A stretch of DNA of 64,000 nucleotides from Methanobacteriota archaeon (GTDB taxonomy: Archaea; Thermoplasmatota; Poseidoniia; Poseidoniales; Thalassarchaeaceae). The notes beneath the pieces were generated by a model. It did no database searches. It had not been told where the DNA came from and was given only the letters and a program-made list of their open reading frames with translations. This document shows positions 9,962 to 60,190 of this stretch, piece by piece (the first letter of the stretch is position 1; the number at the start of each line of letters is the position of its first letter). The position numbers were made by a program, and so were the translations under genes. Where the stretch lies: the NCBI GenBank assembly GCA_002730095.1, contig PBZE01000042.1:623-64622 (forward strand), written 5' to 3'.

Positions 9962-11755
9962 TCAGTGGGTCGTTACGAATACCTCTGACGCAAACGGGGG
10001 CATCTCCAATTCGGATTCAGAGAATGCTTCTTCGACGGAATCGAAATGACCTTGGCCATTCCTAATCCTAATTGCCCTGGTGCTGACAATCCTCCAAGAG
10101 GACTTCGCGCCTATTCCAGGGAGGGCTTCCAACTGGTTCCTTGTGGCAGAATTGATATCTATCCCACACTCAATGCCCGATATACTCCTCATCCCATGAG
10201 ATGTGACTAAAATATCGGATTCTGTCTCCAGCGGTATGGCATATGGCACCCCCACTAGTAATGGATATGCCCCAATCTGTCTCCCAAATGTTACTCCTGG
10301 AGAACCACGAATGGATGGCTGTGTGAATTTCTTATCCAGAACGTGTTCAGGCAGTCTAATCCTGCCCTCCCTAGATTCCCACCATACTGCTGAAAGTTTA
10401 GTACCTACAGGGGCGATTTCCTTGAGCATTGGCCTGTCGATTTCCTCCCTTACAGATTCTTTGAAACTCCTGAATTCAGTCTCTGGAATATCCTGAAATC
10501 CCTTGCCTTCGACTTGTCTGATATTTATTCTTCTAAGCCATAGTCCTTCTGACTTAATTTGTCTTAGAAGCTGAAGATTGAGGTCGTATGTGACCCGAGA
10601 CTCACCGTTCAGACCAGCAATGAAATTGAGTCCTGGCAAGAGTTTGGGCAGGCCCCTTGGGCCCCTCTCCCTTCCATATTCATTGATGTGCCTTATGGCA
10701 GTTTTCAGCTGCATCGGGTCGCAATTGAGCCAATTAGCATGATGAACTTCCGGATCTGCTGATTCCAAACCGAAAGAAAGCACCGCACCGTCTGAAAGAT
10801 TAGAGACGAGCTGTTTGGTAATTTCTGTTGAAGGCTCGATGTTCTGAGCAATAATTGAGGGATTTGCATTATCCACATGCAATATTTCGAGTGACTCATT
10901 TTCTCTTGCGCTGTTTAGTACCTTTGAAATGGGCTCTGGATTGGGAATTGGGTACTCCAAATCCTCGACCCCTTCGGCACGATAGGTGTAGATATCGGTA
11001 GCCCCGCCGATTCTTACATTGACCACTCCTGAGTCTATTGCTGCGTTTATCTCCTTAATGACGTCGGATTCTTCCCTCCAGAGAGGGAGCCCCTTCTTGG
11101 GCTCTATGCAGAATTTACACCCTCTCTTGAATCTGACACAGCCTTGGTAAAGCTCGATTTCGTATATCAGAGGGCCGCGCACACCGCCATGAGATGTTAT
11201 GTCGGGATGATCAGTTACTGCCTTTGATCCTGCTCCTTTCAAAGCCCATTTTGACCATTGGTCCGATGTTCTCTTCGTATGTGACCAAATTCCTGTCGAG
11301 AGGAAGTGGTTTAGGGTGGCGTCGGTATCTTTTACTGTGCAGAAAAGGTTCTTTCTTGGAGAAATCCAACCGGACTGTCTCCAATGTCTGATTGCCCATC
11401 CCCCACATAGTACTGGAACGATTGAGGGGATGGAAGAAAGTATTGCGTCTACTTCCCTCAGACTAATTGGGGTCCCTCTAATGTATTTCCCTGGGACCAC
11501 GGCGCCAGCAAGGATGATGGCCCCCTCTAAATTCTTCATCTCATTCCTGATTGAGCTTCTTCCATCTGAAGTCTCTAGCTTGGATTTGTATGACCTTCTC
11601 CATTGATCAACTGTCATGTACGTGTATTCAATGGCCCTCTCCTCTAACACTCCGCAGATATATCTTACATGAAACCCCACATAATTTGGAACTCCGAATG
11701 CCGCAGGCTCATCCTCGTAACCATCGATTACGAGCCAACCGCCTGACTCGTCCAT
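9962..11755 (-). CDS. Radical SAM-like Fe-S enzyme with C-terminal helix-hairpin-helix (COG1031-type), function unknown
   Basis: It has the Cys cluster YQGCVRFKRGCKFCIEP and a C-terminal HhH (RNQLEALPGIGAKSSWRIV). This architecture is the one described for the archaeal 'radical SAM with C-terminal HhH' group. Confidence 0.6.
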   Translation of the reverse strand: MDESGGWLVIDGYEDEPAAFGVPNYVGFHVRYICGVLEERAIEYTYMTVDQWRRSYKSKLETSDGRSSIRNEMKNLEGAIILAGAVVPGKYIRGTPISLREVDAILSSIPSIVPVLCGGWAIRHWRQSGWISPRKNLFCTVKDTDATLNHFLSTGIWSHTKRTSDQWSKWALKGAGSKAVTDHPDITSHGGVRGPLIYEIELYQGCVRFKRGCKFCIEPKKGLPLWREESDVIKEINAAIDSGVVNVRIGGATDIYTYRAEGVEDLEYPIPNPEPISKVLNSARENESLEILHVDNANPSIIAQNIEPSTEITKQLVSNLSDGAVLSFGLESADPEVHHANWLNCDPMQLKTAIRHINEYGRERGPRGLPKLLPGLNFIAGLNGESRVTYDLNLQLLRQIKSEGLWLRRINIRQVEGKGFQDIPETEFRSFKESVREEIDRPMLKEIAPVGTKLSAVWWESREGRIRLPEHVLDKKFTQPSIRGSPGVTFGRQIGAYPLLVGVPYAIPLETESDILVTSHGMRSISGIECGIDINSATRNQLEALPGIGAKSSWRIVSTRAIRIRNGQGHFDSVEEAFSESELEMPPFASEVFVTTH

Positions 11756-22356: not shown

Positions 22357-25300
22357 TTGGGATTATACAGCGTCGGCAATTGGCTCTCTAAGAGAGCCAT
22401 GGCAAGAGCGTCAACTTCACTAACTCCAGTCCTCGTTTCTTTGATGCTTCTCATGCTCGATGTTTCTATCGCAGTGAGTGGCAATGACTGGGAAATCGAA
22501 GATGGGACGGAGTCTGGCGATTCTTCGGACATTGGCTACGCTGACAAAATTCCTGCGCTGATGTGCGGGAGTGAAGAATGTCCAGAGAAAGACAGGTCGC
22601 CTTATCTCCCTCCAAATGATGTTGAATGGCCGGTTCAGGAACCGGGTTGGTGGTTTAACTTCTGGAATGACAAGGACGGTAATGGGATGGATGATCGTTT
22701 ACAGTGGATAATTTCCGGAGAGAGAGATTCCGTCTCGACCAGTGCCATTATGGGAACTGATGGAAGAATGACTGTGGCTATTTTTGTCTGTTACTCGTGG
22801 CATCCCGGCGAATCAGATGTAGCTCGACTGAAGGAGGTTCTTTCGAACCACGGGTGGGATGAATTCGAGACCTACTTCCGAACAGTTGACATTCTGGACA
22901 CAATAATTGTCGAGCATGTCCCGGTGAGTTCATTAATTGATATCCTGATGCTTGAGGGAGTAGTTCTAGTTGAGCAGCAAGATGTCCTCGTACCTTATCT
23001 GAATACAGCCACCAAGGGATCCAAAGTCAGGTCCTCAGACATATTTTCAGAGACTATGATGGATTATGGATACGATGGTTCAGGAGTTGTAATCGCGATA
23101 GCGGACACAGGTGTTGATAATGAGCATTTTTCATTAGATGATTTCTCTGATGACAACACTGACAATGAAGCAGAGCCGGACGAATTACCGGATCCTAAAT
23201 GGGTGGCCGGATGTGATTCGACATCATGGAATCAACAAGATTGTGATGATGGGGCAGACGATCCTGATGATGGGGACGGCCATGGGACTCACGTTGCTGG
23301 TATCGCTCTTGGGACAGGGGGGCCAGATAGGGAAAATCAGGGTTATGCGCCAGGCGCATATTTGGTTGATATCAAAGTCATGACAGATGCAGGCGCATCC
23401 AATTCCGGCTACACGGTGGCAGGTATTAACTGGGCAGTACAGAATGTCGATACTGATTGGGGGAATAATGACTCTAGCAGAGGGATTGACATTCTATCAA
23501 TGTCATTCGGCAGTGGCTCGAATCCAGCAGGAGGAGAGGACCCGGGAGACAATGGAACCAGTCAGGATTCTTTGGCCGTTAATGCTGCATCTGAAGCAGG
23601 TATTGTTTGTGTCGCCGCGATTGGTAATGATGGGTACCGAAGAGTCACTTCAGTGGGAGCGGCGGACTCTGCCATTACCGTGGGCTCTATCGATGACAAG
23701 GCTAGTATCGAAAGAGGCGATGACTCAATCTCATCTTTTTCTAACTCGGGACCTAGGGAAGATGATGGCGATGATAATGAATGGGACGAGCTCAAGCCAG
23801 ATGTTGTAGGGCCTGGCTCGAACATAATGTCAGCGCAGCATGCCGCCTCAAGTTCTTCCCTCCCCGGCTCTGCTAAACCATTGGCAAGTGATAATTACGT
23901 TCAGAAGTCAGGAACAAGTATGTCGACTCCAGCAGTGGCTGGATTTATTGCGGCGATGCTGCAGATGGATGAAGACCTGACTCCTCAAGAAGTAAAGGAT
24001 ATACTACGAAATAACTCTGAAACTAGAGGTGGTTCGTCGGCTCCGGAGATCACCGAAAGGTGGAATGATCAGTATGGTTTTGGGATTATTGACGGCGAAA
24101 TGGTGATGCAGGCAATTCTGGGCGACAACAATGGAGGAGGAGATGGAAATGATACGACTCCACCGCCCACAGGTACTGAGGAGTGGGTGATTATTGAAAC
24201 GCCTGAGGAGGACTCATGGCTTGTAGAGGGAGAAACGTATAGTGTTCGTGGCCACATCGATGAAGATGCCGATACAAATGGGACTATCGAAGAGGTGAAC
24301 GTCAGTATCTCGTATAGATATCGGCCAGAAGAAGGCCCGAGACAGACTGCTATTTTGGTTGACTGGCATGTAGTACAGGGGACTCTTAATTGGTCGACGC
24401 CCTTTTCCATCCCTGAATTCACAGAGGATGAGATCGATGTGGAAGACATAATCATCAAGGTGAAGGCCAGGAATGAGTTCAACGTATGGAGTGAAATGGA
24501 GCAAAGTGAACATCCAGTCGGCTTGGTTGAAGTTAGTCTTGGAGGCCCCAGTGGACAAAGTCCGGTATCGGGAAATACGAATATTTTCGGTGGATGGGAG
24601 TCAGTAAATGGTGGAGAAATTCAATGGAGGCTGGGAACTGATGAATGGGAGACTGCTGAGCAATTTGGAGGATCCGGAAGTAGCTCAGGAGATTGGTCGG
24701 TTAGTTGGGACACTAGATCAGTAAACGATGGATTCTACCGCATATCAGTAAGGGTAGTGAGTGGAGATGGAATTTTCTCAGAGGAGGTCAGAAGGACTGT
24801 AGAAGTGGATAACGACCCCCCTGCCCCAGACCTTATTTTCCGAAGTGGGATAACGATTAGTGAATATGGCTTACCTATTGCTGAAACCTATGTTAACACA
24901 TTCCTTGAAGTCAGTTGTGAAGTGAGAAATGACGGCGACTTAGATGCGACTGAGGTCACCATTTATCTCAAGGAAAATGGGGCTAGGAAAGACGAAGTCG
25001 TCATCCCAAGTATTGGCAGCGGGGACATAGTAGAAATTGTTCTGTATTGGAATCCTCTCAGCCTAGGAGATCGCTCACTTACAGTATCCTTAGATCCAAC
25101 AAATGAAATTGACGAGATAAATGAGGGGGACAACGAGCAGACTGCGGAGTTTCCAGTACTGGAAAGGCCCCAAGGGGTCGATTTATCATTTAGAGAGGGA
25201 GCAGTCAGGACCGAGCCTCCGGTTCCGAGGCCTAATGAACAATTTTTGATCACTGCCAGAGTGGATAACTTGGGTTCGAGTGACGCTAGGGATATTGAAG

Positions 25301-27183
25301 CGACTTTGGAAATCAGAAATTCCGTCGGTTGGGAAACTGTTTCCTCGTCCCCAGTTAGCCTAGTGGTGGGGCAAGGTTCGTCACAGATTTCGTTCGCGCG
25401 CATTGAAAATTCTACAGGCCCTATTAACCTCCGGATTAGTGTCTCGGGCTCGTCTCTATCGGATTTAGATTGGTCGAACAATGAGATTGAGTCTTCGATC
25501 TTGGTTGACGAAACCACTCTTACTGGCCCACGTACTGCTAGCTTTACTACAGGTGAAGTGCCAGTGGAATTGATTCAATTGGGCGATGAGGGAGGCGTTG
25601 TCATAACGAACAAAGATGATGATCTCAGACTCTACAGACTAGGTAGCAATAGGGCATTGACTGCATGCTCTAATGTCTTGGAGGAGAAATGGTCGGGGGA
25701 TATTGTAGCTGTATCATCAGATGATGGCTTAGCGCACGTTGCATGGACAAGGAGATACCTTGACAATTCTGGTTTCTTCCAACAGACAGTCAGCTATACC
25801 ACGATTGACTCAAGCTGCCTAATGACCCCAATTCAAGACATAATGGAACCGATCTTACTATCCGATGGGAAATACTGGGGCATTGGAATGGATATCGAAG
25901 GGCCTGAGATATTACTTGCTGGATATCACCATGAAATCAATACTGGCTCATCTAACGATAACATTGCGGTTTTTATGGCGATATCAGAATCTCCGACTAA
26001 GTCTGCTGACTGGATAATCAACCCCCAGGTAGTTGGCGGACTGGATGTAATACCGGGAGCCACGGACCCTGTTGCCGTAGCGATGGGCGAGGAAGATGGC
26101 CATATTTTGTATCAAGACACAAGAAATGACACGACCGGGGCGGACAGACTGGGCCTGTGGTATTCCCATGGCCTCCCCGGGCAGACTTCATGGTCCTATA
26201 GAAAGGCAGTTGGAGACTATGCGTTCTCTCCCTCAATATCGGTTTCTCAGATTTCTGACGAGGATATAATCGTCGCATCATGGGGAGAAGGTTATGATCA
26301 GGGCTCAGAATTGGTTACGACTATTGTTGATAGCTCTTTTACCCCAATAGGGGAAGGAGAGGTCAGGACTCCCGCTAGGGGCCTCGGTCATCTCAAACTA
26401 TTGGAAACAGATAGAGGGGTCCAGTTGTTCTTTGACTTCGTGGGTCCGAGTGGCCCTCAGATGCAGTACGGAATGGTAAATCCTGAGGAGGGGTGGATTG
26501 GTATATCAGACCGACTGGGACTTGGAAGAATAATAGTTTCAAGCAGATCGCCAATAGATAGCGACGCCGTAATTCTGCAGACATCGCCCACAGGATGGCA
26601 AATCAGGGCTCTTGTCGATGACTCTTCTCCTGTGTCCTCAGACGGAACTATCCTTGATCAGGTTAGGGCTTACACCGGACTTGATGAGCGAAATTTCAAT
26701 GTGATCTTGATCGGGGTTTCAGGCGTCACAATAGTACTGAGCCTGTTAGTAATCCTGACTATGGCCACTAGAGCGCTCCGGTGGGCTAGTGGAGGAAGTC
26801 GGAAAAGAGTCACAGGGACTGTAATTCTCGAAGAGGATGTAGTTGATGTTATTGAAGAGACTGATATTCCAATCAAATCTTCAGACGTGGAACTAGTTGA
26901 AGAAACCACAATATCGGAAACTCAAGCTTCAACAGAGAGGAGGAAGAGGAGGGAATACAGATCGATGTCAGGGTCATCACTTGGAAATATTCCCGAAATC
27001 GGGGATGGATCCGGCTATTCGCCCCCTATTCCAATGCATGTCCCTCCGTCCCCCCTACCTGCCCCTCCCAGCGGCATTAACAGGAGGGTGATGTGCAAAT
27101 CTTGTAATGCAATCTTTGAAGTTGAATCGGGATTAAGCAGATCAAAGTGTCCGGTTTGTGGAGAAAGGATTGAGCTAGTTTGA
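22357..27183 (+). CDS. Giant subtilisin-like (S8) serine protease, TM-anchored, with a cytosolic C-terminal zinc ribbon
   Basis: The likely start is ATG 22399, giving the signal peptide MARASTSLTPVLVSLMLLMLDVSIAVSG. The catalytic triad contexts are IADTGVD, HGTHVAG and SGTSMSTPAVAG. Downstream are CARDB-like beta domains and a propeller-like region. A TM helix (ILIGVSGVTIVLSLLVILTMA, nt ~26700-26765) is followed by a ~140-aa tail ending CKSCNAIFEVESGLSRSKCPVCG. Confidence 0.85.
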   Translation: MGLYSVGNWLSKRAMARASTSLTPVLVSLMLLMLDVSIAVSGNDWEIEDGTESGDSSDIGYADKIPALMCGSEECPEKDRSPYLPPNDVEWPVQEPGWWFNFWNDKDGNGMDDRLQWIISGERDSVSTSAIMGTDGRMTVAIFVCYSWHPGESDVARLKEVLSNHGWDEFETYFRTVDILDTIIVEHVPVSSLIDILMLEGVVLVEQQDVLVPYLNTATKGSKVRSSDIFSETMMDYGYDGSGVVIAIADTGVDNEHFSLDDFSDDNTDNEAEPDELPDPKWVAGCDSTSWNQQDCDDGADDPDDGDGHGTHVAGIALGTGGPDRENQGYAPGAYLVDIKVMTDAGASNSGYTVAGINWAVQNVDTDWGNNDSSRGIDILSMSFGSGSNPAGGEDPGDNGTSQDSLAVNAASEAGIVCVAAIGNDGYRRVTSVGAADSAITVGSIDDKASIERGDDSISSFSNSGPREDDGDDNEWDELKPDVVGPGSNIMSAQHAASSSSLPGSAKPLASDNYVQKSGTSMSTPAVAGFIAAMLQMDEDLTPQEVKDILRNNSETRGGSSAPEITERWNDQYGFGIIDGEMVMQAILGDNNGGGDGNDTTPPPTGTEEWVIIETPEEDSWLVEGETYSVRGHIDEDADTNGTIEEVNVSISYRYRPEEGPRQTAILVDWHVVQGTLNWSTPFSIPEFTEDEIDVEDIIIKVKARNEFNVWSEMEQSEHPVGLVEVSLGGPSGQSPVSGNTNIFGGWESVNGGEIQWRLGTDEWETAEQFGGSGSSSGDWSVSWDTRSVNDGFYRISVRVVSGDGIFSEEVRRTVEVDNDPPAPDLIFRSGITISEYGLPIAETYVNTFLEVSCEVRNDGDLDATEVTIYLKENGARKDEVVIPSIGSGDIVEIVLYWNPLSLGDRSLTVSLDPTNEIDEINEGDNEQTAEFPVLERPQGVDLSFREGAVRTEPPVPRPNEQFLITARVDNLGSSDARDIEATLEIRNSVGWETVSSSPVSLVVGQGSSQISFARIENSTGPINLRISVSGSSLSDLDWSNNEIESSILVDETTLTGPRTASFTTGEVPVELIQLGDEGGVVITNKDDDLRLYRLGSNRALTACSNVLEEKWSGDIVAVSSDDGLAHVAWTRRYLDNSGFFQQTVSYTTIDSSCLMTPIQDIMEPILLSDGKYWGIGMDIEGPEILLAGYHHEINTGSSNDNIAVFMAISESPTKSADWIINPQVVGGLDVIPGATDPVAVAMGEEDGHILYQDTRNDTTGADRLGLWYSHGLPGQTSWSYRKAVGDYAFSPSISVSQISDEDIIVASWGEGYDQGSELVTTIVDSSFTPIGEGEVRTPARGLGHLKLLETDRGVQLFFDFVGPSGPQMQYGMVNPEEGWIGISDRLGLGRIIVSSRSPIDSDAVILQTSPTGWQIRALVDDSSPVSSDGTILDQVRAYTGLDERNFNVILIGVSGVTIVLSLLVILTMATRALRWASGGSRKRVTGTVILEEDVVDVIEETDIPIKSSDVELVEETTISETQASTERRKRREYRSMSGSSLGNIPEIGDGSGYSPPIPMHVPPSPLPAPPSGINRRVMCKSCNAIFEVESGLSRSKCPVCGERIELV

Positions 27184-36648: not shown

Positions 36649-39600
36649 GTGTTGAGTATGTTGGGTCGTGCGAATCGTTATTCTTCTAGTAGGGCCGTCA
36701 TTTTAGCGGCTCTTCTGATGGTGACAAGCTTGTCCCCAATGGCATTTGCAGATAATGCCAATGACGAGGCCATAGACCAAATTGTTGGCGACCTTAGTGA
36801 GTTTGATCCTGCGTCGGATGGGAAGCCGTATTTGTTCTCCGCGTCGCCAGTTCCAATATATTCGGCCACGGGATTTCTCAAATCTCAATGGAGATCTGAC
36901 GGCTATCCTGACTTGACCCTTCCATTCTCACAATCATACCTCAATTCTAGGAGTGCGACAAGAAATTGTGACAATGCATGGAGTGTTGGAGACACCAGTG
37001 ACGTCGCAACTGCTGGCGGGTCCATTTCTGCTACTGTACAAAAGATTTCGAGTAACTCCGCAATAATAGTTGAGGATGGCCAAGTGATACCTTCCACGAC
37101 TCTGAATGATATTGCCTCTACTTGGGAGTCGACGATTTTCCCCACGGTAACTAGCTACTTTGGGTCTACGCCAGACGTTGACAATAACTGTCAGGTAGAA
37201 ATCATAGTCTTCTCCATTGACGGAGCAGGGGGGATAGGGGGATATTTCGTCCCTGGGCTTTCATCTTCCACTGACTCACTATTCATCGATATTGACGACC
37301 TCAGTTGGAGGAACACTATAATTGCACATGAATTCCAACATCTCTTGCACAACGCGAGAGATCCCTTTGAGTTTATTTGGATAGATGAGGGTGCTGCTGA
37401 CATGGCCGCATACCTATGTTTTGGAGTCACCAGCACCCTTACGGGTCATGCTAATGCGTGGTCGCAGAATTCCAATATGAGCGTGAGATGGTGGAATCAG
37501 AGAATTGCCGATTATGGCGCTGGGTTCCTGTTCATGATGTACCTATCGGACAAGCTCGGAGGTGCTTCATCAATATCGGCATTGGTAGCCAATACTGATA
37601 CGGGAGGAAGTGCAATAGAGGATCTTGCATCCAATCCTCCTCCCGGTTCGACGCCCATTGGAACGACAATGAGTGATATTTTCGCCAATTTCACACTGGC
37701 TGTATCCATAGACAGTGAACAAGGCGCGTTTGGTTTCTCAAATCTAGATCTTAGTTCGGCCTGCACTTCTGCATTTATTTGCAAGGCCCAGATGAGTGGA
37801 TTCAACGATCAATGGGTGAATCCATGGACGAGCCCTCTGCAAGAGCTAGAGGGATGGGGGATGAGGGCTTACAAATTCAATCAAGGATCGGGTGCACCAC
37901 TGAATATCATGGCTCAACCCTCTGAATTTGGGTTTGAAGGTGCCTTGCTCGCTAAAGACAGCAGTACTGGAAGTTGGTCCATGAGCAGGATGAGGGTTGA
38001 TCAAGTCACTGGCTCCATTACTGGCTTGATTCATGGTTTTGGGACTGATGTTGATGAAGTCTGGATGACAACATGGTACGAGTCGTCTGTTGATGATTGT
38101 GATTATAATTATGCGACTTGTGGAATAACGAGTGGGGACTATCCGACTGCTACTGTCACCGTTCAGGCGATGCTAGTAACTGATCCTGCTGAAGTATCGA
38201 TAGATTCCATAGACGGATTCGACAGGGATGGAGATGGCCTGTCCGATAGTGTTCAGATGGACCTAGATGTTGTTTCTAATTCATTTTTCGAAATACTCGA
38301 AGTGACTGTGGATGCATTCTCAAATAATACACTCGTGGATACTAAAGTATTCACGGTGACAGCGGGAAATAGTATTGCGACGGAGAAGAGCATATGGTTC
38401 ACTCCGCCATATACCTCTGAGTGGACCTTTGGGGCAGAGGTCAGGGACGTGACATCGACTTTGGTGGATCAGGCTTTCTCATTGCCAATTCAACTAGCTA
38501 ACATGGAGCCTGTTGCGTCGATCTCTGTTTCCGTAAATTCTACTCAGACTTGGCTCCCAGTGAATATGTTCGGATCTGGTTATGATGAATGGGGCTTTGG
38601 AATGGAGAACGGGTCATTCTCTAACAATGAAACCCCTATTGCATATTTCTGGGACTTGGGGGATAATATTTCATCTACACTGAAAAATCCAGTGCATCGG
38701 TTTTTGGAGGCTGGTACATACCCGGTGGTCCTGACTGTTATGGATCAGGGGGGCTTCTACTCCGAATCACAGACATGGACTGTGGATGTTCAGGATACTA
38801 GTGATCCGATCCCAGAGATTTCTGTAGAAGGGGTAGTGGTTTCCGAAGAGTTGATCCTGATGACAAATCAACAGGTGATGTTTTCTGCCCTCGGAACTAC
38901 AGATAATCTTCCCCTTGAGGAGCTCTATTTTGAGTGGAACTGGGGAGATGGGGAGATAGAATCGGGGATCGGATTATACGAATCTAGTCATTCATGGGTC
39001 GATGGAAGTGCAGACGGCATAATCTACACTCTTTCTCTCCTGGTTAGCGATGGGATTCATGATGTCGAGCATACAATCTTCATCAGGGTCCTAAACAGAG
39101 TTCCTCAGCAGATTTTTGATAGTCAGCTTCAGACATACACTCTGACCCCACTCACTCTTCCGACATTATTCACAGACAGTGATGGAATGATAGTTAGCTA
39201 TGATTGGTCATTTGAAGAAGGAGTAAATCTTGACGGTAGCGGTATGGCAATGACCTCAGATTTCTCCCAACTATCATCTGATTTGGCTAATCCCGTAGTC
39301 GGATGGCTGACTCCGGGACTGAAGAATATAGGCCTGACGGTCACTGATGATGATGGAAACTCCACATCTGCCACCATCCAAGTTAATGTGATCAACCAGA
39401 GGCCGGTTGCGGTCTTCTCCAGGCCAATGGATGGGACAGTAGATACGACATATACATTCACTAGTTACTCTTTCGATCCTGATGGAGACTCGACTCAACT
39501 TTCCACCATCTGGACCATATCGGATCTTTCTGGCATAATCGAGAATACTACATCTGTAAGTCACACTTTCATGGAGCCCGGACTATACACGGTTTCACTA

Positions 39601-40761
39601 AGAGTCGTCGATGTACTTGGCCTTTCTTCGGCTGAGAAATCTTTTAGTTTGAGAATAGAAAATCCACTACCAGTCCCGATGATTGATTTCTCTTGTCCGA
39701 ATGTGAATGGGACAATATTGGATAGGGAGCCGACGGACGTTGAGCAAGTTATCTGGCAAGTCCCTTGGGTTGAAGGGGGAGGGGCCTTTGTTTCACCGAT
39801 GAGTCTCATCAAGTTTGATGGATCAGGTAGCTATGATTCCGATCCCGCTTTCAATGGAAAATCTTCAATGGACATTGAAGATCCAGAATGGAATGGAATT
39901 ACTAGATGGATTTGGGACTTCGGAGATGCGAGCCCGGCAGTCGAGGGAGGAGTTGTTTGGCATCAATATTCGATTCCCGGCACATATACAGTGACTCTCA
40001 CCGTAGTGGATGGATTTGAAGGGGGGGAGACGAACACCACTTCTATACAGGTAATTGTTTCGAAATCTCCTGTGATCATGACAGATAGACCAATTTCTTC
40101 TGATTACGTCAACATGGGAGATCCAGTTTACTTGAATTACAGTGTTTTTGATCAGGACTTAGAAGACGGCCTTGTGGCATGGATGGATTCTGATGCGTCG
40201 ATTGACACGGATGGGGATGGAGATTCCACTAACGACAGGGACATGACTCTGTCTGGAGACTTGGTGGTGAGATGGGATCTAGATGCAAGCAAGGACTCCG
40301 ACGGAGATGGCAATTACAAGAATGACTGGGACTGGAATCCTGAATCATGGAGTGAGGAAGGTGAAATTAGGATCACTATGCAGGTTTGTGATGCTGTGGA
40401 TGTTTGTGCAGAAAGAGACTACGTGATCACTGTACTATCGACAGAAGATGAGTATGTTCCCAAGTCATTATCGGACCTAACATGGGAGGACATAGTCCCC
40501 AATAGGGAGAGCGGTGGCCTTCTGGCACTCGTTGGACTAGTACTACTCCTAGGTTGGATAATAATGAGGCAGAAAGATGAAGAGGAGCTTGAAGCTGAGG
40601 ATATGATGGAGACATATGATGTCGATGAAGTTGAAGCGGATGGAGGACTCCCGGGGATGGATCAACACAAACCTCCTCCTCAGCCAAAGTATCTTTCGGA
40701 AGATGAACGCAGGGACACAGATTCTGGTTATGTACGCCCAATTAGAACTAGGAGGCGTTGA
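36649..40761 (+). CDS. Giant secreted zinc metalloprotease (HExxH) with multiple PKD-like domains and a C-terminal TM anchor
   Basis: The likely start is ATG 36655, with the signal ...SLSPMAFA|DN. The HEFQH site lies at nt 37326-37340 within IIAHEFQHLLHN...IDEGAAD (gluzincin-like, possibly M30-like). There are at least 5 PKD-like modules (WDLGDN...GTYPVVLTVMDQGG; WNWGDG; LTVTDDDGNS; GLYTVSLRVVD; WDFGDA...GTYTVTLTVVDG). DxDxDG loops follow, then a TM helix (LLALVGLVLLLGWIIM) and a ~70-aa charged tail. Confidence 0.75.
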   Translation: MLSMLGRANRYSSSRAVILAALLMVTSLSPMAFADNANDEAIDQIVGDLSEFDPASDGKPYLFSASPVPIYSATGFLKSQWRSDGYPDLTLPFSQSYLNSRSATRNCDNAWSVGDTSDVATAGGSISATVQKISSNSAIIVEDGQVIPSTTLNDIASTWESTIFPTVTSYFGSTPDVDNNCQVEIIVFSIDGAGGIGGYFVPGLSSSTDSLFIDIDDLSWRNTIIAHEFQHLLHNARDPFEFIWIDEGAADMAAYLCFGVTSTLTGHANAWSQNSNMSVRWWNQRIADYGAGFLFMMYLSDKLGGASSISALVANTDTGGSAIEDLASNPPPGSTPIGTTMSDIFANFTLAVSIDSEQGAFGFSNLDLSSACTSAFICKAQMSGFNDQWVNPWTSPLQELEGWGMRAYKFNQGSGAPLNIMAQPSEFGFEGALLAKDSSTGSWSMSRMRVDQVTGSITGLIHGFGTDVDEVWMTTWYESSVDDCDYNYATCGITSGDYPTATVTVQAMLVTDPAEVSIDSIDGFDRDGDGLSDSVQMDLDVVSNSFFEILEVTVDAFSNNTLVDTKVFTVTAGNSIATEKSIWFTPPYTSEWTFGAEVRDVTSTLVDQAFSLPIQLANMEPVASISVSVNSTQTWLPVNMFGSGYDEWGFGMENGSFSNNETPIAYFWDLGDNISSTLKNPVHRFLEAGTYPVVLTVMDQGGFYSESQTWTVDVQDTSDPIPEISVEGVVVSEELILMTNQQVMFSALGTTDNLPLEELYFEWNWGDGEIESGIGLYESSHSWVDGSADGIIYTLSLLVSDGIHDVEHTIFIRVLNRVPQQIFDSQLQTYTLTPLTLPTLFTDSDGMIVSYDWSFEEGVNLDGSGMAMTSDFSQLSSDLANPVVGWLTPGLKNIGLTVTDDDGNSTSATIQVNVINQRPVAVFSRPMDGTVDTTYTFTSYSFDPDGDSTQLSTIWTISDLSGIIENTTSVSHTFMEPGLYTVSLRVVDVLGLSSAEKSFSLRIENPLPVPMIDFSCPNVNGTILDREPTDVEQVIWQVPWVEGGGAFVSPMSLIKFDGSGSYDSDPAFNGKSSMDIEDPEWNGITRWIWDFGDASPAVEGGVVWHQYSIPGTYTVTLTVVDGFEGGETNTTSIQVIVSKSPVIMTDRPISSDYVNMGDPVYLNYSVFDQDLEDGLVAWMDSDASIDTDGDGDSTNDRDMTLSGDLVVRWDLDASKDSDGDGNYKNDWDWNPESWSEEGEIRITMQVCDAVDVCAERDYVITVLSTEDEYVPKSLSDLTWEDIVPNRESGGLLALVGLVLLLGWIIMRQKDEEELEAEDMMETYDVDEVEADGGLPGMDQHKPPPQPKYLSEDERRDTDSGYVRPIRTRRR

Positions 40762-42437: not shown

Positions 42438-42768
42438 TCAGTTCTTCGAACCTAGGATTCTGTTTAATCGTGTCGTGTCAACTGGGAATAGTAGTAACCC
42501 ATAATTTACTCTCCTCATCGAAGGATGGATTTGGCAAATTTGATCCCGATACGTGATTTATTATGGATAGAAAAACCATTCTCCAGTATGTTTCATAAGC
42601 CTCGTCTTGGGATTTTGAATAGTACACTATCATAGAATTAGGGGTATCTAGAAGAATGGTATATTGACTTTTTTCTCGGAGAGAATAAAGTAGTGAAAAT
42701 GAATGATTTTTACCGATATATTCGCAGGGTTGAATAACCCCCTACCACTAGATTATAGCATTATGATT

Positions 42769-47460
<4,692 letters not shown>

Positions 47461-53035: not shown

Positions 53036-54244
53036 ATGTCTAAGAACGATGTTGGTAAGTGTATCCTGATGGCGGGGTACTTAGACCGGATTGGCGCCGG
53101 CAAGGTCCTTCTTGATAGGGGGCCTCTATCTTTCGATTGGACGCCCCCTCAATTGGTCGGCAGGGACAGGGAACTAGAATCACTGGCTTCAATGTTCATG
53201 GGGATTGGGAACGAGGGAGTCAGTGGCCGAGCGGTAGTTGTTGGTCACGTAGGTACCGGTAAGACAGTTCTAACCAGAAGATTTGGGGAAGATGTAATCA
53301 GAGAAATGGACGGCATTAGGAAGATGGTTCTTTCTCATGTCAATTGTAGGAATCACCCTTCAACTTCCCAGGTGCTGCAACAGATTGCTCTGTCGCTTGA
53401 CTCAAGGCATCCGGAAAGGGGGTTCAGCTCGGGCGAGATAATCCAGTCAATAAGGAGGAACATCCGATCTAGGGGACTTCACATGATACTCGTCTTGGAC
53501 GAGGTAGATGTCCTTGTTAGGAGAGACAGTAGTGATCTGATATACAAACTTCTACGAATAGATGAAGGCCAAGGCAATCAAGGAACGATTTCACTGATTC
53601 TGGTAAGTCAGGACCAATCTTTGATGGGAATGATGGAGCCGGCAATAATTTCTAGACTGGGAGAAAGTAATGTTTTGAGTCTGAAACCTTACGATTCTGA
53701 AGGCCTGGTTGGAATATCGAGGCAGCGATATGAAGCTTCATGCAAGCCAGGTTCTGTAGGCGAAGAAGTACTGGAAAAGATTGGCAGATTCGCCTCTGAG
53801 ACCGGGGATGCGAGACTGGCAATTGAACTCCTAGAGGCCGCTGTAAGAAGAGCAGAGATGGACGGAAGAGGCGAGGTAAATGTTAGTGACGTTATGCCTA
53901 GTACCATAAGGACAGCTTCCGTTGAGCCGAGTCAAGTAGATACCCTCAGTGTTCATGAGAAACTCATCCTACTGGGAATTTGTAGGAGATTACGAAAAGA
54001 AGAGGAAATTTCGAGTGGTGATGCTCGGAAGCTGTATGAACTCGTATGCGAGGAATTCGCGATTAAAACTAGGAGCTATACCACGTTCTGGAAGCATCTA
54101 AAATCGTTAGAAACTGAAGGTTTGCTAGAAGCCAGATCTACTAATACTTCTGTGGGAAGAGGCAGAACTACGTACATAACAATGACTAATACTTCCCCCG
54201 CTACAATAGGTAGCAGGATAGAGAAGGAGTTCATGAACCGCTGA
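53036..54244 (+). CDS. cdc6: ORC1-type DNA replication protein (Orc1/Cdc6)
   Basis: It has LVGRDRELESL, Walker A (GHVGTGKT), Walker B (LVLDEVD), sensor-2/lid (GDARLAIELLEAA) and a C-terminal winged helix (LKSLETEGLLEARS). Confidence 0.9.
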   Translation: MSKNDVGKCILMAGYLDRIGAGKVLLDRGPLSFDWTPPQLVGRDRELESLASMFMGIGNEGVSGRAVVVGHVGTGKTVLTRRFGEDVIREMDGIRKMVLSHVNCRNHPSTSQVLQQIALSLDSRHPERGFSSGEIIQSIRRNIRSRGLHMILVLDEVDVLVRRDSSDLIYKLLRIDEGQGNQGTISLILVSQDQSLMGMMEPAIISRLGESNVLSLKPYDSEGLVGISRQRYEASCKPGSVGEEVLEKIGRFASETGDARLAIELLEAAVRRAEMDGRGEVNVSDVMPSTIRTASVEPSQVDTLSVHEKLILLGICRRLRKEEEISSGDARKLYELVCEEFAIKTRSYTTFWKHLKSLETEGLLEARSTNTSVGRGRTTYITMTNTSPATIGSRIEKEFMNR

Positions 54245-56075: not shown

Positions 56076-56441
56076 ATGACGGGGATTCTCGTCGACACTT
56101 GTGGATGGGTCGCCTTAGTAAAATCTGGACTAAATCTAGATTCAGAGATGTCGAAGGTGATTGGTAAGCCGGAGCTTTTCGTCATACAAAGTGTATGGGA
56201 AGAGTTGGAGGACTTGGCCAAGGACAAAAGGGGGCTTCTCTTAGAATTGCTAAAATCTAGATGCATAATAATTGAAGATCCCATAGGGGTGAGCCATACG
56301 GATAAAATGTTGATTCAGCTCTCCAAGAGTAACAAATGGCCTGTTTTGACCGTTGACACTAGACTGAAAGAGGGACTCTCACGATCTGGATGCCAATATA
56401 TCGAAGTAGTCTCAGATAGAATGCTTAGATTAATTGACTAA
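56076..56441 (+). CDS. PIN-domain protein
   Basis: The acidic residues are spaced as in PIN domains: ILVDTCG (D7), WEELED and LTVDTRL. It lies directly after aIF2-gamma, a conserved archaeal neighbourhood. Confidence 0.55.
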   Translation: MTGILVDTCGWVALVKSGLNLDSEMSKVIGKPELFVIQSVWEELEDLAKDKRGLLLELLKSRCIIIEDPIGVSHTDKMLIQLSKSNKWPVLTVDTRLKEGLSRSGCQYIEVVSDRMLRLID

Positions 56442-56731
56442 GGCAGAGTGAATAGATCGTCGTCTCCTTGGCCATCCATGAATCCTATTTTTACTGCAGC
56501 ATCAATCCAAGCATGGGCATAGTTTATCGCTCCAAATGCCCTTACCAAATCTCCCTTTTGCATGAAATACCTAGCATCTGAAAAATAATCATCACACATC
56601 CTAAGCATCGAAGATAGCTTTTCTGAGTTCTCGGGTTTGAGTTTGATCGGCGTTGCCTTTTTTCTCGCCTCTTCGGTCAAGGACATGTATTTCTCAACTC
56701 TTTCAATGGTAACAATTATCTTGTCGTTCAA
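56438..56731 (-). CDS. DUF357-like small protein
   Basis: CDDYFSDARYFMQKGDLVRAFGAINYAHAWIDAAVKIG matches my recollection of the DUF357 helical-hairpin pattern (Y..DA..F...GD...A......YA.G..DA). Confidence 0.5.
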   Translation of the reverse strand: MNDKIIVTIERVEKYMSLTEEARKKATPIKLKPENSEKLSSMLRMCDDYFSDARYFMQKGDLVRAFGAINYAHAWIDAAVKIGFMDGQGDDDLFTLP

Positions 56732-56733
56732 AA

Positions 56734-58602
56734 CTATGCCTCCACTAATTTCTGGGCCGCCTCGGTGATTTTGAAGAGTCTTTTTCTACCCTGCTTTCTC
56801 ACAGATAGAAACCCCGATTTATGCAGTCCGTTGTATATTTGTGAAAGTCTGGGCCTGCCGACTTCCAATCTGGCCTGAAGTTCGGCGTCAGAGGGAGATA
56901 TCTCTCTCTTGGAAGCTGCTGAGATTACTAGGAGTTCGGCTTCATTGAGGGAATTTGATCGGTTCACATCAAAGGGTTTGTCTGGCTCCCATAAGTTAGC
57001 TGTTCGGAATGACTCTGAATTAGAGGGAGTAGTGTGATTCGAGGAATCTGAAATTTCAGCGATTGGAGAATCATCAATTCCAAAAAGGGAATCTTTTGCA
57101 ATCTCCTCTTCGAAGGCAGGCAGGGATGATTCCATTGAAGACTCTACAGACCAATGGGCAGAATTTGTAGATATTACACTAGATGGTGAAGACTCTGTGT
57201 TCCCCTCCACATTGTCATTTTTCTGTTTCGAGTCAAAATTCTTGTCACTTTGATCTCCCGAATCTGGCATGGGTCTTGGTTCAGTATTGGGCCATAAAGG
57301 TGCTACTTCCGATATTGATTCAATTAATGGGGTGCCATCTTCCGAATTGGGCTGTGAAATCTGAGCTACTCTAGATCTGCCCAATAGCCCCTCGAAGCCA
57401 CTTCCGGACTTGAACATCGGAGGCTCGGTTCCTGGTTGCATATACACAAAATCATCCAATGTGCCTTGTTCGGATTTTGGCCTTGTGTCAATCACTTCTT
57501 CGGTGATGCCCTCATTCTGGATTTCATCTTCATTATCCTGTAACCACAAATCACTTGGATCGTCGAGGGGATCACTTTGTTCTTCGATGTCCTCGTATAA
57601 TTCTGAGTCGACCAATAAATCATTAATTTCTTGGGTTTCATCGATTTCATCGATCGGTTCAAAACTTTCCTTCTCCCTCTGGGAAAATGAAAAATCCGCA
57701 TCTTCTTGGACATCAATATCCGAGAACATGGATCTTTCAAGGGGGGCTTCGACTTCTTCTTGAATTTCAATTGCCCCAGAGGGCTCTGCGATATTGTCGG
57801 ATATTTGCCAACGCATCAGCCTCTCCAATGTCCCCTGTGCACCTACATCCCTCCTCTCATCAGTCAGATCTCTGAGTAGTCTGATTACATCTCTAGGATT
57901 GCCCGAGGTAGATTCGTGAATTCTAGATAGAAGATTATCTTGAATGATCCATTTCTCCCTAGCCTTCCTGGATACGAGTCTGTTAGAAAGATCCTGTATC
58001 TGATCTTTTGTCAGATTTTCAATATGTTGAGGATCATCATACAACTGTGCTGTCTCCTCATCTATTGTAGAAAGCTGAGATGGAGTCAGGACAACTATCA
58101 CCAAAGCCCTAAGCCTTTGAAGGATCGGCGATATTGAGCTAAGCACAGGGGCTATTTCAACACTGGATGGATAGTCGAGCGAAATGACTGGTAGATTACC
58201 TGCAGACTCCTCTAAATTAGAAACCAAATCATCAATCATCTTCTGATTAGAACCGGAAGAGGCGAATCCACAGAAGTGTATTGAGAGCTCATGAATTATC
58301 GTATTTACTGGGTCTTTCATAGGCCAATATTGGCCGACGAAACTTCTTCTGGTCTGAGACGCCAGAGTTCTCACAATCGATGATCTGCCTGAGCCCCTCT
58401 CGCCTACCAATAGAAACATCCTCGGAGATTGGGAAACTATGTGCTCCCTCCAGGAAGAAATCAAGCGATCCCTCCCAACTAGGTATTCTGCCCTGCCACT
58501 TTCAATTGGCCTGAGGTCGAATGGATTGCCCCTAAGTAGAGGAAGTCCTAGTTTCTCTGCCACGCCCTCCCTCACAATCACCTTGAGAGTAGTAGAGTAC
58601 AT
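56734..58602 (-). CDS. Divergent Orc1/Cdc6-like AAA+ protein with degenerate Walker A, a long acidic insertion and a C-terminal winged helix
   Basis: The N-terminus has LVGRDRLISS and the P-loop GERGSGRSS (Arg at the Walker A Lys position, nt 58381-58404). It also has VISLDYP (weak Walker B) and GNPRDVIRLLRDL (like the GDARxAxxLL lid motif). aa ~270-520 are strongly acidic and low-complexity. The C-terminus (LSQIYNGLHKSGFLSVRKQGRKRLFKIT) is wHTH-like. Confidence 0.5.
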   Translation of the reverse strand: MYSTTLKVIVREGVAEKLGLPLLRGNPFDLRPIESGRAEYLVGRDRLISSWREHIVSQSPRMFLLVGERGSGRSSIVRTLASQTRRSFVGQYWPMKDPVNTIIHELSIHFCGFASSGSNQKMIDDLVSNLEESAGNLPVISLDYPSSVEIAPVLSSISPILQRLRALVIVVLTPSQLSTIDEETAQLYDDPQHIENLTKDQIQDLSNRLVSRKAREKWIIQDNLLSRIHESTSGNPRDVIRLLRDLTDERRDVGAQGTLERLMRWQISDNIAEPSGAIEIQEEVEAPLERSMFSDIDVQEDADFSFSQREKESFEPIDEIDETQEINDLLVDSELYEDIEEQSDPLDDPSDLWLQDNEDEIQNEGITEEVIDTRPKSEQGTLDDFVYMQPGTEPPMFKSGSGFEGLLGRSRVAQISQPNSEDGTPLIESISEVAPLWPNTEPRPMPDSGDQSDKNFDSKQKNDNVEGNTESSPSSVISTNSAHWSVESSMESSLPAFEEEIAKDSLFGIDDSPIAEISDSSNHTTPSNSESFRTANLWEPDKPFDVNRSNSLNEAELLVISAASKREISPSDAELQARLEVGRPRLSQIYNGLHKSGFLSVRKQGRKRLFKITEAAQKLVEA

Positions 58603-58780
58603 AACATTAACGTTTTATTACGGATTGAAATAACTAAATTAACGTATATTTACGCTTTTTCAATAATATTTTTTTTTATATATTAGACTAGTATTACGTT
58701 TTTTAATTTTATCATTAACGCTTTTCTAACGCTTTAATTATGCGTTAACAAAGCGTTAATGTCTTTATTAACGCTTTAAA
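58603..58780. repeat. Cluster of about 9-10 short TTAACGCTTT-like motifs in both orientations within an AT-rich spacer
   Basis: Direct copies or variants start at 58607 (TTAACGTTTT), 58639 (TTAACGTATA), 58650 (TTACGCTTTT), 58694 (TTACGTTTTT), 58715 (TTAACGCTTT), 58727 (TAACGCTTTA) and 58768 (TTAACGCTTT). Inverted copies lie at 58742-58748 (GCGTTAA) and 58751-58760 (AAGCGTTAAT). A central T/A tract spans 58661-58690. Confidence 0.7.
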
Positions 58781-58825
58781 TTAGTGATTATTGGGTTCTT
58801 TGGAGATATACTCGAAGTCGGTTAA

Positions 58826-60190
58826 GTGACTCTAAGAAGAAGAATTAAGCGAAATGTACAGAAGGGTGTTTTTTCTGAAGAGCATGATAACATGCCAGTT
58901 GATAGCAGTCGATTGAAAGGATTCTACAAACTATCTGTCCCAGAGAGAAGGAGCTTGCTCTCAGATATAGCAGGATTGGATGAGCGAATGGTAGAGGCGT
59001 GGGCCTCTAACGGAGAACTATCAGAGGAAGTCGCCGATAGAATGATTGAGAATGTGATTGGCACATATTCGCTCCCAATTGGTGTGGCGACCAATTTCAT
59101 AATCGATGGCGAGCATTATTTGATTCCCTTTGTTGTTGAAGAGGCGAGTGTTGTCGCTGCAGCTTCCAACATGGCGAAGAGGTGCCATTCGAAGGGCGGT
59201 TTTGTTTCCAACAATGATGAGCCTGTTATGATTGGTCAAATCCAAGTTGTAGGTTGTGATGATCCGGAGGCTGCCAGGCAAGCAATACTTTCATCTGAGA
59301 AAGAGTTGATTGAAGCATGTAATGACGTCGACCCTATTCTCGTGAAATTTGGTGGCGGATGCAGAGGAGTTGAGGCTCGTATTATTGAGACTGGGTCGGG
59401 ACCCATGGTCATAGTGCATATCCTAGTTGATTGCAGAGATGCTATGGGGGCGAATGCAGTAAATACCATGGCAGAAACCATAGCTCCAAGGATAGAGGAG
59501 CTGAGCTCTGGAACAGTTATCCTTAGGATAATCAGCAACCTTGCTGTACATCGGCTGGCAAAAGTTAGTGCCACATTCACTCCTGAAGAAATGTCGGATA
59601 CCGGATCGGATAGGGAAGGTGGTTCGAGAGTTATTGACGGTGTCATTCAAGCATATCATTTCGCTGCGGCGGACCCATTTAGGGCAACGACTCACAACAA
59701 GGGGATAATGAATGCGATTTCACCGATTGCTATAGCATGTGGACAGGATTGGAGAGCGATAGAGTCTGGCGCCCATTCCTACGCATCTTATGGGAGGGAA
59801 TATGGATCCATGACTCACTGGGAAGAAGACGACGATGGGAACTTAGTTGGCTCAATTGAGATACCAATGGCAGTAGGGCTCGTCGGAGGGGCCGTTAGGA
59901 TACATCCGGGAGCTCAGGCAAATGTGGCACTATTGGGACTTAGGACTGCTAACGATCTCGCCAAGGTTATGGCAGCGGCAGGGCTAGCTCAGAATCTTGG
60001 CGCATTGAGGGCTCTGGCAACTGTAGGCATTCAGGCCGGACATATGAAATTGCATCTCATGAATATGGTAGCCGCTTCAGGTGCCGAGGGCGAAGAGATT
60101 GAAGCTGTCGCGAAGATGGTCAGGGAAAGTGGGGAGCGAATCACCATGGCAGCAGTCGAAGAGGCCTTGACAATAGTTAGAGGCAACTAG
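58826..60190 (+). CDS. hmgA: Hydroxymethylglutaryl-CoA reductase (class II-like)
   Basis: EEASVVAAASN, CRDAMGANAVNTM, GQDWRA and VGGAVRIHP fit the class II HMGR pattern. The likely start is ATG 58892 (MPVDSSRLKGFYKLS). Confidence 0.85.
   Translation: MTLRRRIKRNVQKGVFSEEHDNMPVDSSRLKGFYKLSVPERRSLLSDIAGLDERMVEAWASNGELSEEVADRMIENVIGTYSLPIGVATNFIIDGEHYLIPFVVEEASVVAAASNMAKRCHSKGGFVSNNDEPVMIGQIQVVGCDDPEAARQAILSSEKELIEACNDVDPILVKFGGGCRGVEARIIETGSGPMVIVHILVDCRDAMGANAVNTMAETIAPRIEELSSGTVILRIISNLAVHRLAKVSATFTPEEMSDTGSDREGGSRVIDGVIQAYHFAAADPFRATTHNKGIMNAISPIAIACGQDWRAIESGAHSYASYGREYGSMTHWEEDDDGNLVGSIEIPMAVGLVGGAVRIHPGAQANVALLGLRTANDLAKVMAAAGLAQNLGALRALATVGIQAGHMKLHLMNMVAASGAEGEEIEAVAKMVRESGERITMAAVEEALTIVRGN

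Follow-up and report, generated by a model that had tools for sequence, protein, structure and literature searches.

Bacterial DnaA-box arrays, at oriC and in the dnaA promoter, consist of nine-mer boxes beside the gene for a protein that combines an AAA+ module with a DNA-binding domain, and they can serve autoregulation. Regulators of the ArsR type commonly autoregulate as well, the archaeal autoregulator Ss-LrpB has three boxes in its own control region, and the parC site of the plasmid R1 parC/ParR system is a partition site that doubles as an operator. In Sulfolobus, the Orc1 paralogue Orc1-2 acts as a transcription regulator and not as an initiator (PMC9738581). For the origin recognition box (ORB) of archaeal replication origins the consensus CTTCCAGTGGAAACGAAAGGGGT was used in this study (PMC4153887), and the Methanomassiliicoccales, which belong to the same phylum (Thermoplasmatota) as the organism analyzed here, use the canonical ORB GTTCCAGTGGAAATGG-AGGGGTA (PMC4153887). 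The present analysis concerns a 64-kb window (the whole stretch of DNA that was analyzed) from the Poseidoniales (Marine Group II, MGII) and, within it, the spacer at 58603-58825 that separates hmgA from a divergent, uncharacterized gene encoding a 622-amino acid protein, labeled X622. An earlier note on this DNA had described about 9-10 copies of a short motif in the spacer and proposed a replication origin or, alternatively, a dense autoregulatory operator array. For comparison, 75 related loci were retrieved and 69 orthologous spacers were aligned; within these 69 genomes the identity of X622 goes down to 36% and the GC content of the locus ranges from 39% to 63%. The array and X622 probably constitute an operator array with an unusual, uncharacterized regulator, outside the oriC/ORB class.

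The spacer contains 11 copies of a 9-10 bp box, TTAACGCTTT, which reads AWGCGTKAR on the opposite strand. A pattern search with TWACGYTTT returned eight matches in the 64 kb, seven of them inside 58608-58777, compared with 0.62 expected from shuffled sequence (eight matches were reached in 0 out of 100 shuffles). A position weight matrix (PWM) built from the relatives gave the same picture: all eight matches of at least 12.6 bits in the window fall within 58606-58777, and elsewhere in the window only three weak matches were found (at most 11.7 bits, with about five expected at random). The copies listed in the earlier note are all real (direct at 58607, 58639, 58650, 58694, 58715, 58727, and 58768; inverted at 58742-48 and 58751-60), and its count fell short by one degenerate copy with its core at 58618-58623. 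The description of the spacer as AT-rich also holds, since its GC content is 25% versus 46% for the window and the twelve 100-bp stretches with the lowest values in the GC profile of the window all lie within it.

Wherever a locus extends far enough upstream of X622, the boxes are found in the spacer there, and hardly any occur at other places. Across 71 loci, a PWM cut-off of at least 12.5 bits gave 443 matches in 15.6 kb of array and three in 781 kb of flanking DNA; the DNA scanned in this way consists of about 74 kb of the window genome and the orthologous 14-kb stretches of the others. The boxes are thus locus-specific in the DNA examined, and within that DNA there is no sign that the motif lies upstream of many unrelated genes. 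Chance or low complexity as a source of the boxes was ruled out by the shuffles and the conservation, and a general promoter motif (TATA box or transcription factor B recognition element, BRE) by the absence of the box upstream of all other genes, both in the window and in the 781 kb of related DNA. The alignment of the orthologous spacers, which the earlier note had suggested, shows eight box positions common to the 69 genomes, with cores that are 96-100% conserved while the bases between the boxes drift.

The eight conserved boxes form two clusters with a fixed geometry over about 175 bp. Cluster A, on the hmgA side, is a partly palindromic set of five boxes (orientation A1< A2> A3> A4< A5<), and cluster B, on the X622 side, three boxes (B1-B3) that all have one orientation. 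The spacing is 16 bp for A1-A2, 11 bp for A2-A3, 15 bp for A3-A4, 11 bp for A4-A5, and 10 bp for B2-B3, each in 69 out of 69 genomes, and 22 bp for B1-B2 in 66 out of 69. The distance between the clusters (A5-B1) varies only from 74 to 78 bp and is 77 bp in 44 of the 69 genomes. The invariant spacings of 10-11 bp identify the recurrent unit as a direct repeat one helical turn apart and place the paired boxes (A2-A3, A4-A5, and B2-B3) on one face of the helix. DnaA-box arrays share with this locus the phasing of oppositely oriented boxes at about 11 bp beside the gene of an AAA+ protein, but the likeness is a functional analogy only: there is no sequence relationship, the catalytic Walker A lysine and the Walker B glutamate are missing from X622 of MGII, and an origin function is unsupported. 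Archaeal autoregulators with multiple boxes such as Ss-LrpB likewise have repeated, phased sites in their own promoter, at the BRE and TATA box, and cooperativity may be inferred here; the array differs in its eight conserved and 11 total sites over about 175 bp, in the order-wide conservation of its spacing, and in belonging to a multidomain, AAA+-like regulator of about 620 amino acids.

Two corrections of the flanking genes define the extent of the control region. The X622 open reading frame (ORF; 56734-58575, minus strand) could extend to an ATG at 58602, the start used in the earlier note. This codon reads ATT in L001, and in L014 an in-frame stop comes after it, so that the GTG at 58575, in a conserved start column, is the true start. 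The hmgA ORF (58892-60190, plus strand; HMG-CoA reductase, Pfam HMG-CoA_red, E = 1e-104) could in turn extend to 58826, but the start is the ATG at 58892, and the corresponding MPVD start was found in 69 out of 71 loci. Since both starts move inward, the noncoding region is larger than the 223-bp gap that had been described, and the alignment of the 69 spacers places the whole divergent control region at 58576-58891.

Within this region, box A1 (58767-58777, minus strand; ATTAACGCTTT on the plus strand; PWM 17.7 bits) lies nearest to hmgA and is kept in all Poseidoniales examined. Box A2 (58750-58760, plus strand; AAAGCGTTAAT; 17.7 bits) is inverted relative to A1 and forms, together with A3 (58739-58749, plus strand; TATGCGTTAAC; 14.7 bits), one arm of an inverted repeat of 20 nt (58713-32 / 58742-61, 90%), the other arm of which is made up of A4 (58725-58735, minus strand; TCTAACGCTTT on the plus strand; 14.2 bits) and A5 (58714-58724, minus strand; ATTAACGCTTT on the plus strand; 17.7 bits). 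This repeat is a probable protein-binding palindrome and not an RNA hairpin, as its four boxes are invariant and show no covariation; a structured or known RNA in the spacer was also rejected because Rfam finds only a tRNA in the whole window. An additional degenerate box at 58692-58702 (minus strand; TTACGTTTT; pattern match) overlaps a small conserved element, TCGnnnnTACTG, and is absent from the consensus of the other clades sampled, as judged from the alignment columns.

The inter-cluster region contains a pure A/T tract of 24 nt at 58662-58685. The earlier note had placed a pure T/A tract at 58661-58690; the tract exists, and the uninterrupted run is the shorter one. Its composition is a feature of AT-rich lineages only, because the region keeps its length (59-63 bp) while its GC content (13-52%) tracks that of the genome: in GC-rich relatives it is 41-52% GC and the longest A/T run is 4-6 nt. 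On the other side of the tract, box B1 (58638-58648, minus strand; ATTAACGTATA on the plus strand; PWM 13.1 bits) is the first conserved box of the X622-side cluster. It is preceded at a distance of 10 bp by an extra box, B0 (58648-58658, minus strand; ATTTACGCTTT on the plus strand; 12.6 bits), that is seen in close (MGIIa) relatives such as L001 and L008 and is absent from the order-wide consensus. Box B2 (58616-58626, minus strand) is degenerate in the window genome, with the core TTACGG at 58618-58623, and reads AAGCGTGAG in most relatives according to its alignment column and sequence logo. Box B3 (58606-58616, minus strand; ATTAACGTTTT on the plus strand; 15.0 bits) abuts a conserved A/T octamer.

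Cluster B is tied to the start of X622. In 69 out of 69 genomes B3 lies 39-40 nt from the X622 start codon, whereas the interval between A1 and the hmgA start varies from lineage to lineage (109-238 nt), which anchors the array to X622 and not to hmgA. The octamer beside B3 (58601-58608, minus strand; AATGTTAT in the window and AATATTAT in the consensus) is TATA-like, its centre lies about 30 nt upstream of the GTG start, and its flanking positions show 67-100% conservation, also in GC-rich genomes. Archaeal TATA boxes are located about 26-27 nt upstream of transcription start sites. Given this distance, the octamer is the candidate core promoter of X622, which would produce a near-leaderless mRNA and place B3 in the BRE position. 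A different TATA box that had been proposed on the minus strand at 58645-58652 is an MGIIa-specific feature without wider conservation.

On the opposite flank, a leader of about 45 nt precedes hmgA (58848-58891, plus strand; CGAAATGTACAGAAGG / AAATGTACAGAAGG in the window and GTTAGAAG in the consensus of the alignment). The leader is conserved order-wide, its distance to the start codon is constant, and a GGTGA-like Shine-Dalgarno sequence comes after it; RNAalifold predicted no conserved RNA structure in it. An ATG within the leader is in frame with hmgA in some genomes and out of frame in the window, so that the leader is probably not coding. Each flank of the control region has a copy of the hexamer ATGTAC (58597-58602 and 58854-58859), and both copies read outward. 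The copy toward X622 lies within ATTATGTACTC and the copy toward hmgA within AAATGTACAG, both of which are conserved, noncoding blocks, and the two copies may be initiator or start-site elements.

The association of box and gene extends beyond the Poseidoniales. Five divergent, full-length homologues of X622 with profile E-values between 1e-32 and 1e-47 were followed to their contigs (L196-L200), and in this sister clade the upstream spacer of X622 is filled with TTAACGC boxes in four out of four loci with enough upstream DNA. The layout differs from that of the Poseidoniales, with three direct boxes, three inverted boxes, a gap, and two direct boxes (>>> <<< gap >>), and the A/T tract between the clusters is absent in L198 and L199. 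The remaining locus, L196, has just 102 bp upstream, with one strong box match and box-like remnants. That box and gene stay together under such rearrangement is the strongest argument, although an indirect one, for X622 as the probable reader of the box. Two viral contigs (L116 at 10784-10860 and L195 at 1485-1560) carry tandem GCGTTA / TAACGC repeats at a spacing of 10-11 bp without a homologue of X622 or hmgA; these are probably iterons or operators of independent origin, with a coincidental match in the hexamer. Iterons of viruses or mobile elements were rejected as the origin of the array, as a two-box scan of viral contigs gave chance single matches and a few unrelated iteron-like arrays.

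The X622 protein combines an AAA+-type module, a linker, and a winged helix. The AlphaFold (AF2) model contains an AAA+-type core at residues 60-263 with moderate confidence (predicted local distance difference test score, pLDDT, of 60), a middle part of about 280 disordered acidic residues with a few conserved short motifs, and a confident C-terminal winged helix at residues 545-620 (pLDDT 81-91 over the last 80 residues). Among the top 50 Foldseek matches of the winged helix in the PDB, almost all are of the ArsR/SmtB or MarR type (probability 1.00, target TM-score 0.6-0.68), including HlyU, SqrR, BigR, NolR, SmtB, CadC, and MarR, and its recognition-helix motif, R(P/S)RLSQIxNxL, is conserved in the Poseidoniales and the sister clade. 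These repressors (HlyU, BigR, SqrR, and SmtB) provide the best structural and sequence matches of the C-terminal domain. The family scores lie far below the thresholds (BigR 22.5 bits vs a cut-off of 155 bits; HlyU profile match E = 0.007), and X622 does not pass the ArsR/SmtB family hidden Markov model threshold. It also departs from the small (about 100 amino acids) dimeric architecture of that family in its 622 amino acids and N-terminal AAA+ module, with the winged helix following a 280-residue disordered linker, and the sites at its locus are mainly direct repeats versus a single 12-2-12 palindrome. As modeled, the DNA-binding domain of X622 is ArsR-like in fold only.

The relationship to Orc1/Cdc6, which the earlier note had assumed when it placed the spacer beside a paralogue of this family, is equally distant. 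The only Pfam match of X622, to AAA_16, scores 28.2 bits and remains below the 32.6-bit cut-off; none of the models TIGR02928, Cdc6_lid, and Cdc6_C was passed, and no Orc/Cdc6 match with E < 1 was found in the PDB by sequence or by profile. A profile of the X622 family matched 194 of 1.84 billion representative proteins, which indicates a small, closed family that HMMER does not connect to the very large Orc1/Cdc6 family. In the Foldseek search with the AAA+ model (pLDDT 60), Pyrobaculum Cdc6 (1fnn) came second (E = 4e-5, 21% identity) among matches to NLR, MuB, and RFC proteins. An hhalign comparison with the Cdc6 profile of the Poseidoniales was collinear but weak (probability 37-56%, E ~1e-4) and paired GSGR(S/T) of X622 with GSGKT of Cdc6 at Walker A, LDYP with LDEVD at Walker B, and GNPRDVIRLL with GDARLAIELL at Sensor 2. 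In all Poseidoniales the Walker A lysine of X622 is replaced by an invariant Arg73 (GERGSGRS) and the Walker B glutamate by tyrosine (LDYP). Two sister-clade homologues (P0190 and P0192) keep the lysine (GIGKTS), which makes the arginine of the MGII proteins a derived loss. Overall, X622 is Orc-like only in its architecture and distant fold and is not a bona fide Orc1/Cdc6 protein. Orc1-2 of Sulfolobus is a precedent for a sequence-specific regulator of the Orc/Cdc6 type with AAA+ and winged-helix domains, but it is a clear member of Orc1/Cdc6 that controls a global DNA-damage regulon through a short promoter motif (PMC9738581), whereas X622 falls outside that family by HMMER and its boxes are seen at one locus.

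Public names of X622, where there are any, are "hypothetical protein" and, for one fragment, "ArsR family regulator". The linker motif EQGTLDDFVY (residues 379-388, window ~57439-57468, minus strand) is conserved within the Poseidoniales, and GxGFxGLxxRS and SAxWSVEPS are further conserved motifs of the linker. The segment QGTLDDFV (residues 379-386) resembles a PIP box (PCNA-interacting protein motif, Qxx[LIM]xxF[FYLV]; cf. QGRLDDFF of FEN1). A PCNA-binding PIP box in X622 was rejected and kept as a lead only, because the sister clade has FDLDMEAL instead. A role as a defense-system ATPase was likewise rejected, given that all PADLOC matches have E > 0.004 and the housekeeping neighborhood is conserved.

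The gene order hmgA, divergently X622, DUF357, PIN, eIF2-gamma, S6e, orc1/cdc6, dph2 is shared by every one of the 75 related loci that is long enough. The DUF357 gene (56438-56731, minus strand; Pfam DUF357, 71 bits) begins 2 nt downstream of X622, follows it in every locus long enough, and from this arrangement is a probable operon partner of X622. A genuine Orc1/Cdc6 protein of 402 amino acids is encoded at 53036-54244 (plus strand; TIGR02928 217 bits, Cdc6_C and Cdc6_lid, PDB 1fnn with E = 3e-37), 4.4 kb from the spacer with five genes in between, and its own flanking spacers measure 54 and 71 bp. In L199 of the sister clade the order is hmgA, divergently X622, an extra 349-amino acid gene, DUF357, a MarR-like gene, PIN, eIF2-gamma, S6e, orc1/cdc6, dph2, and SMC and ScpB genes flank hmgA. 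The extra ORF between X622 and DUF357 is conserved in the sister clade (343-352 amino acids, without a Pfam match), and the gene between DUF357 and PIN, of 134-136 amino acids, is found in L196, L197, and L199 and is MarR/TFE-like by Pfam in L199.

Strand asymmetry was used to examine whether replication diverges at the spacer, with transcription-linked and strand-linked composition separated at fourfold-degenerate sites; the test is local in scope, takes strand bias to reflect replication direction in the usual way, and compares flanks that are orthologous across genomes. In the left 58 kb the coding-strand GC skew is -0.02 for 29 plus-strand genes vs -0.19 for 20 minus-strand genes (Mann-Whitney p = 0.0006), which corresponds to a plus strand of the window enriched in G and T (r ~+0.085), with the AT skew mirroring the GC skew. 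For the right flank the DNA was extended 10 kb past the window end through near-identical contigs; in these 15 kb, with 15 genes, the values are -0.015 vs -0.167 (r = +0.076, p = 0.02). The asymmetry does not flip at the spacer, which therefore behaves unlike an origin or terminus, and the skew inflection expected if the earlier note's origin were correct is absent from this local test. The enrichment of about 0.08 on the plus strand holds over at least 74 kb (window 1-64000 and L202 1-15000) independently of gene orientation, and this uniformity points to a single replication direction through the whole region. Among 46 other Poseidoniales genomes, the two 6-kb flanks of the spacer share their sign in 38, and several lineages of opposite sign flip both flanks together (e.g., L042, L043, L053, L060, L065, and L067). 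A weak or dormant origin at the spacer is possible and compatible with the local skew test.

ORB sequences gave a consistent result. No canonical ORB (TTCCAsTGGAAA core) was found in the window at one mismatch or fewer, in agreement with the earlier remark that the motif is unlike the classical ORB, and there was no exact match in the 75 related loci; the 25 two-mismatch matches in the window (14 expected by chance) include none in the spacer. The largest intergenic gap of the window (42438-42800; 363 bp, 38% GC) lies between a dehydroquinase gene and gyrB-gyrA and was considered as an alternative origin candidate, and no ORB-like repeats are present in it. In the literature, no paper was found on a Poseidoniales origin or on the box motif.

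The explanation that we favor, and hold to be probable though well short of certain, is that the spacer is a cooperative and largely autoregulatory operator array of the X622-DUF357 operon, possibly also of hmgA. X622 would recognize the box through its conserved C-terminal ArsR-like winged helix and would use its degenerate AAA+ domain to form a head-to-tail assembly along the phased direct repeats. As B3 directly adjoins the TATA-like octamer, which lies about 30 nt before the start, X622 bound to cluster B would block or tune the access of TBP and TFB and in this way autoregulate the operon. Cluster A, about 77 bp away, is probably brought into this higher-order complex by looping or wrapping, and through it the complex may be coupled to hmgA. 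The locus-specific boxes, their rigid and deep conservation, the anchoring to X622, the joint travel of box and gene, the winged helix, and a predicted AAA+ oligomerization module all fit this explanation, and the operator alternative in the earlier note has gained from the same evidence. Several points weigh against it. The binder could be a protein other than X622, and ArsR-type proteins normally bind inverted repeats as dimers, whereas the consistent unit in the array is the direct repeat. The eight to 11 sites, the invariant spacing, and the order-wide conservation far exceed the needs of simple autoregulation and hint at a more elaborate nucleoprotein machine. The TATA assignment was inferred from distance and A/T content only, the role of cluster A is unaccounted for, and a wider regulon or second arrays may exist elsewhere in the genome, beyond the ~74 kb and the 14-kb stretches scanned.

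The reading of the spacer as the chromosomal origin of the Poseidoniales, with boxes that substitute for ORBs in this lineage, bind Orc1/Cdc6 or X622, and flank an unwinding element, is the one that the earlier note had put forward, and it now appears quite improbable. The spacer does share features with an archaeal oriC: around the window's most AT-rich stretch there are many short repeats in both orientations, a genuine orc1/cdc6 gene is found nearby in conserved synteny with flanks of its own that leave no room for an origin, and the neighboring X622 combines an AAA+ domain that is distantly Orc/Cdc6-like with a winged helix at the C terminus. The strict conservation of site spacing is typical of origins, and the lack of a canonical ORB in any of the 75 loci means that the true origin either looks unusual or lies elsewhere. 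However, the strand bias keeps its sign across the spacer, the A/T tract is missing in GC-rich relatives and the sister clade, and A5 and B1, the boxes that flank the inter-cluster region, are direct and not inverted. Furthermore, the boxes of 9-10 bp one helical turn apart are locked to a start codon, and the adjoining gene does not pass the Orc1/Cdc6 family models. Genes usually point away from an origin, whereas those on both sides of the spacer mostly point toward it. The box is also unlike the ORB consensus, and other Thermoplasmatota use canonical ORBs (PMC4153887). A related idea is that X622 and the array form a hitherto unrecognized chromosomal nucleoprotein machine of Marine Group II and related Thermoplasmatota. 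X622 would then be an Orc/Cdc6-derived pseudo-ATPase that polymerizes on the two phased clusters in the manner of DnaA or ParR and acts on the chromosome (at a dormant or conditional origin, or at a replication-regulating or centromere-like site), with any effect on its own promoter or hmgA as a by-product. We regard this as unlikely; a small share of our confidence is kept for such an exotic chromosomal role because the site number, invariant spacing, and order-wide conservation go beyond simple autoregulation.

A further reading treats the array as another kind of chromosomal nucleoprotein platform, with X622 as its dedicated binder; it might be a partition site that resembles a centromere and serves as an operator as well, or a site for the titration or regulation of replication factors. 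Two repeat clusters phased at 10-11 bp, at a rigid distance from each other and upstream of an operon for an ATPase-like DNA-binding protein, would suit such a platform, as would conservation well beyond the needs of a simple operator and the presence nearby of genes with roles in replication and the chromosome (in the window, orc1/cdc6, gyrB, and gyrA; in L199, SMC and ScpB). We regard it as improbable, since no ParA-, ParM-, or SegA-like partner gene is present, the ATPase motifs of X622 are degenerate, the SMC neighborhood occurs in one locus only, and the likeness to parC is one of analogy only. The boxes might alternatively be operators of a different, unlinked transcription factor that mainly targets hmgA, and thereby mevalonate and lipid synthesis, with X622 merely co-regulated. 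The constant position of hmgA as divergent neighbor, both in the sister clade and in all Poseidoniales loci of sufficient length, the location of cluster A on the hmgA side, and the conserved leader of about 45 nt, which suggests a regulated gene, speak for this possibility. It deserves some weight but is still unlikely, because the distance between cluster A and hmgA varies more than two-fold while that between the array and X622 is fixed, the array always adjoins a gene that encodes a highly conserved DNA-binding domain, and the absence of the box upstream of other genes in ~780 kb gives no sign of a wider regulon.

The window genome is otherwise compact, with most intergenic gaps under 80 bp. 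A perfect hairpin with 11-nt arms, TTGAGGGTTCC gta GGAACCCTCAA, lies at 42767-42791, about 10 nt upstream of gyrB. Three very large ORFs are located at 4639-9954 (1771 amino acids), 22357-27183 (1608 amino acids), and 36649-40761 (1370 amino acids).

In the surface ocean, few archaea are as abundant as those of Marine Group II, which are uncultured, and to our knowledge nothing is known about their gene regulation or about where the replication of their chromosome starts. The analysis provides a defined regulatory DNA element for this group, with a precise consensus and a geometry that is conserved order-wide and beyond, and a candidate binder from a small, unannotated family in which a degenerate Orc/Cdc6-like AAA+ domain is joined to an ArsR-type winged helix. 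Since element and protein are short and well defined, direct biochemistry is feasible without culture. The origin of the Poseidoniales is to be sought elsewhere, given that the candidate on the cdc6 side is unlike an origin in the local skew tests. The element may also play a part in how these organisms control their membrane-lipid output, since the hmgA product is the key enzyme with which archaea make isoprenoid lipids.

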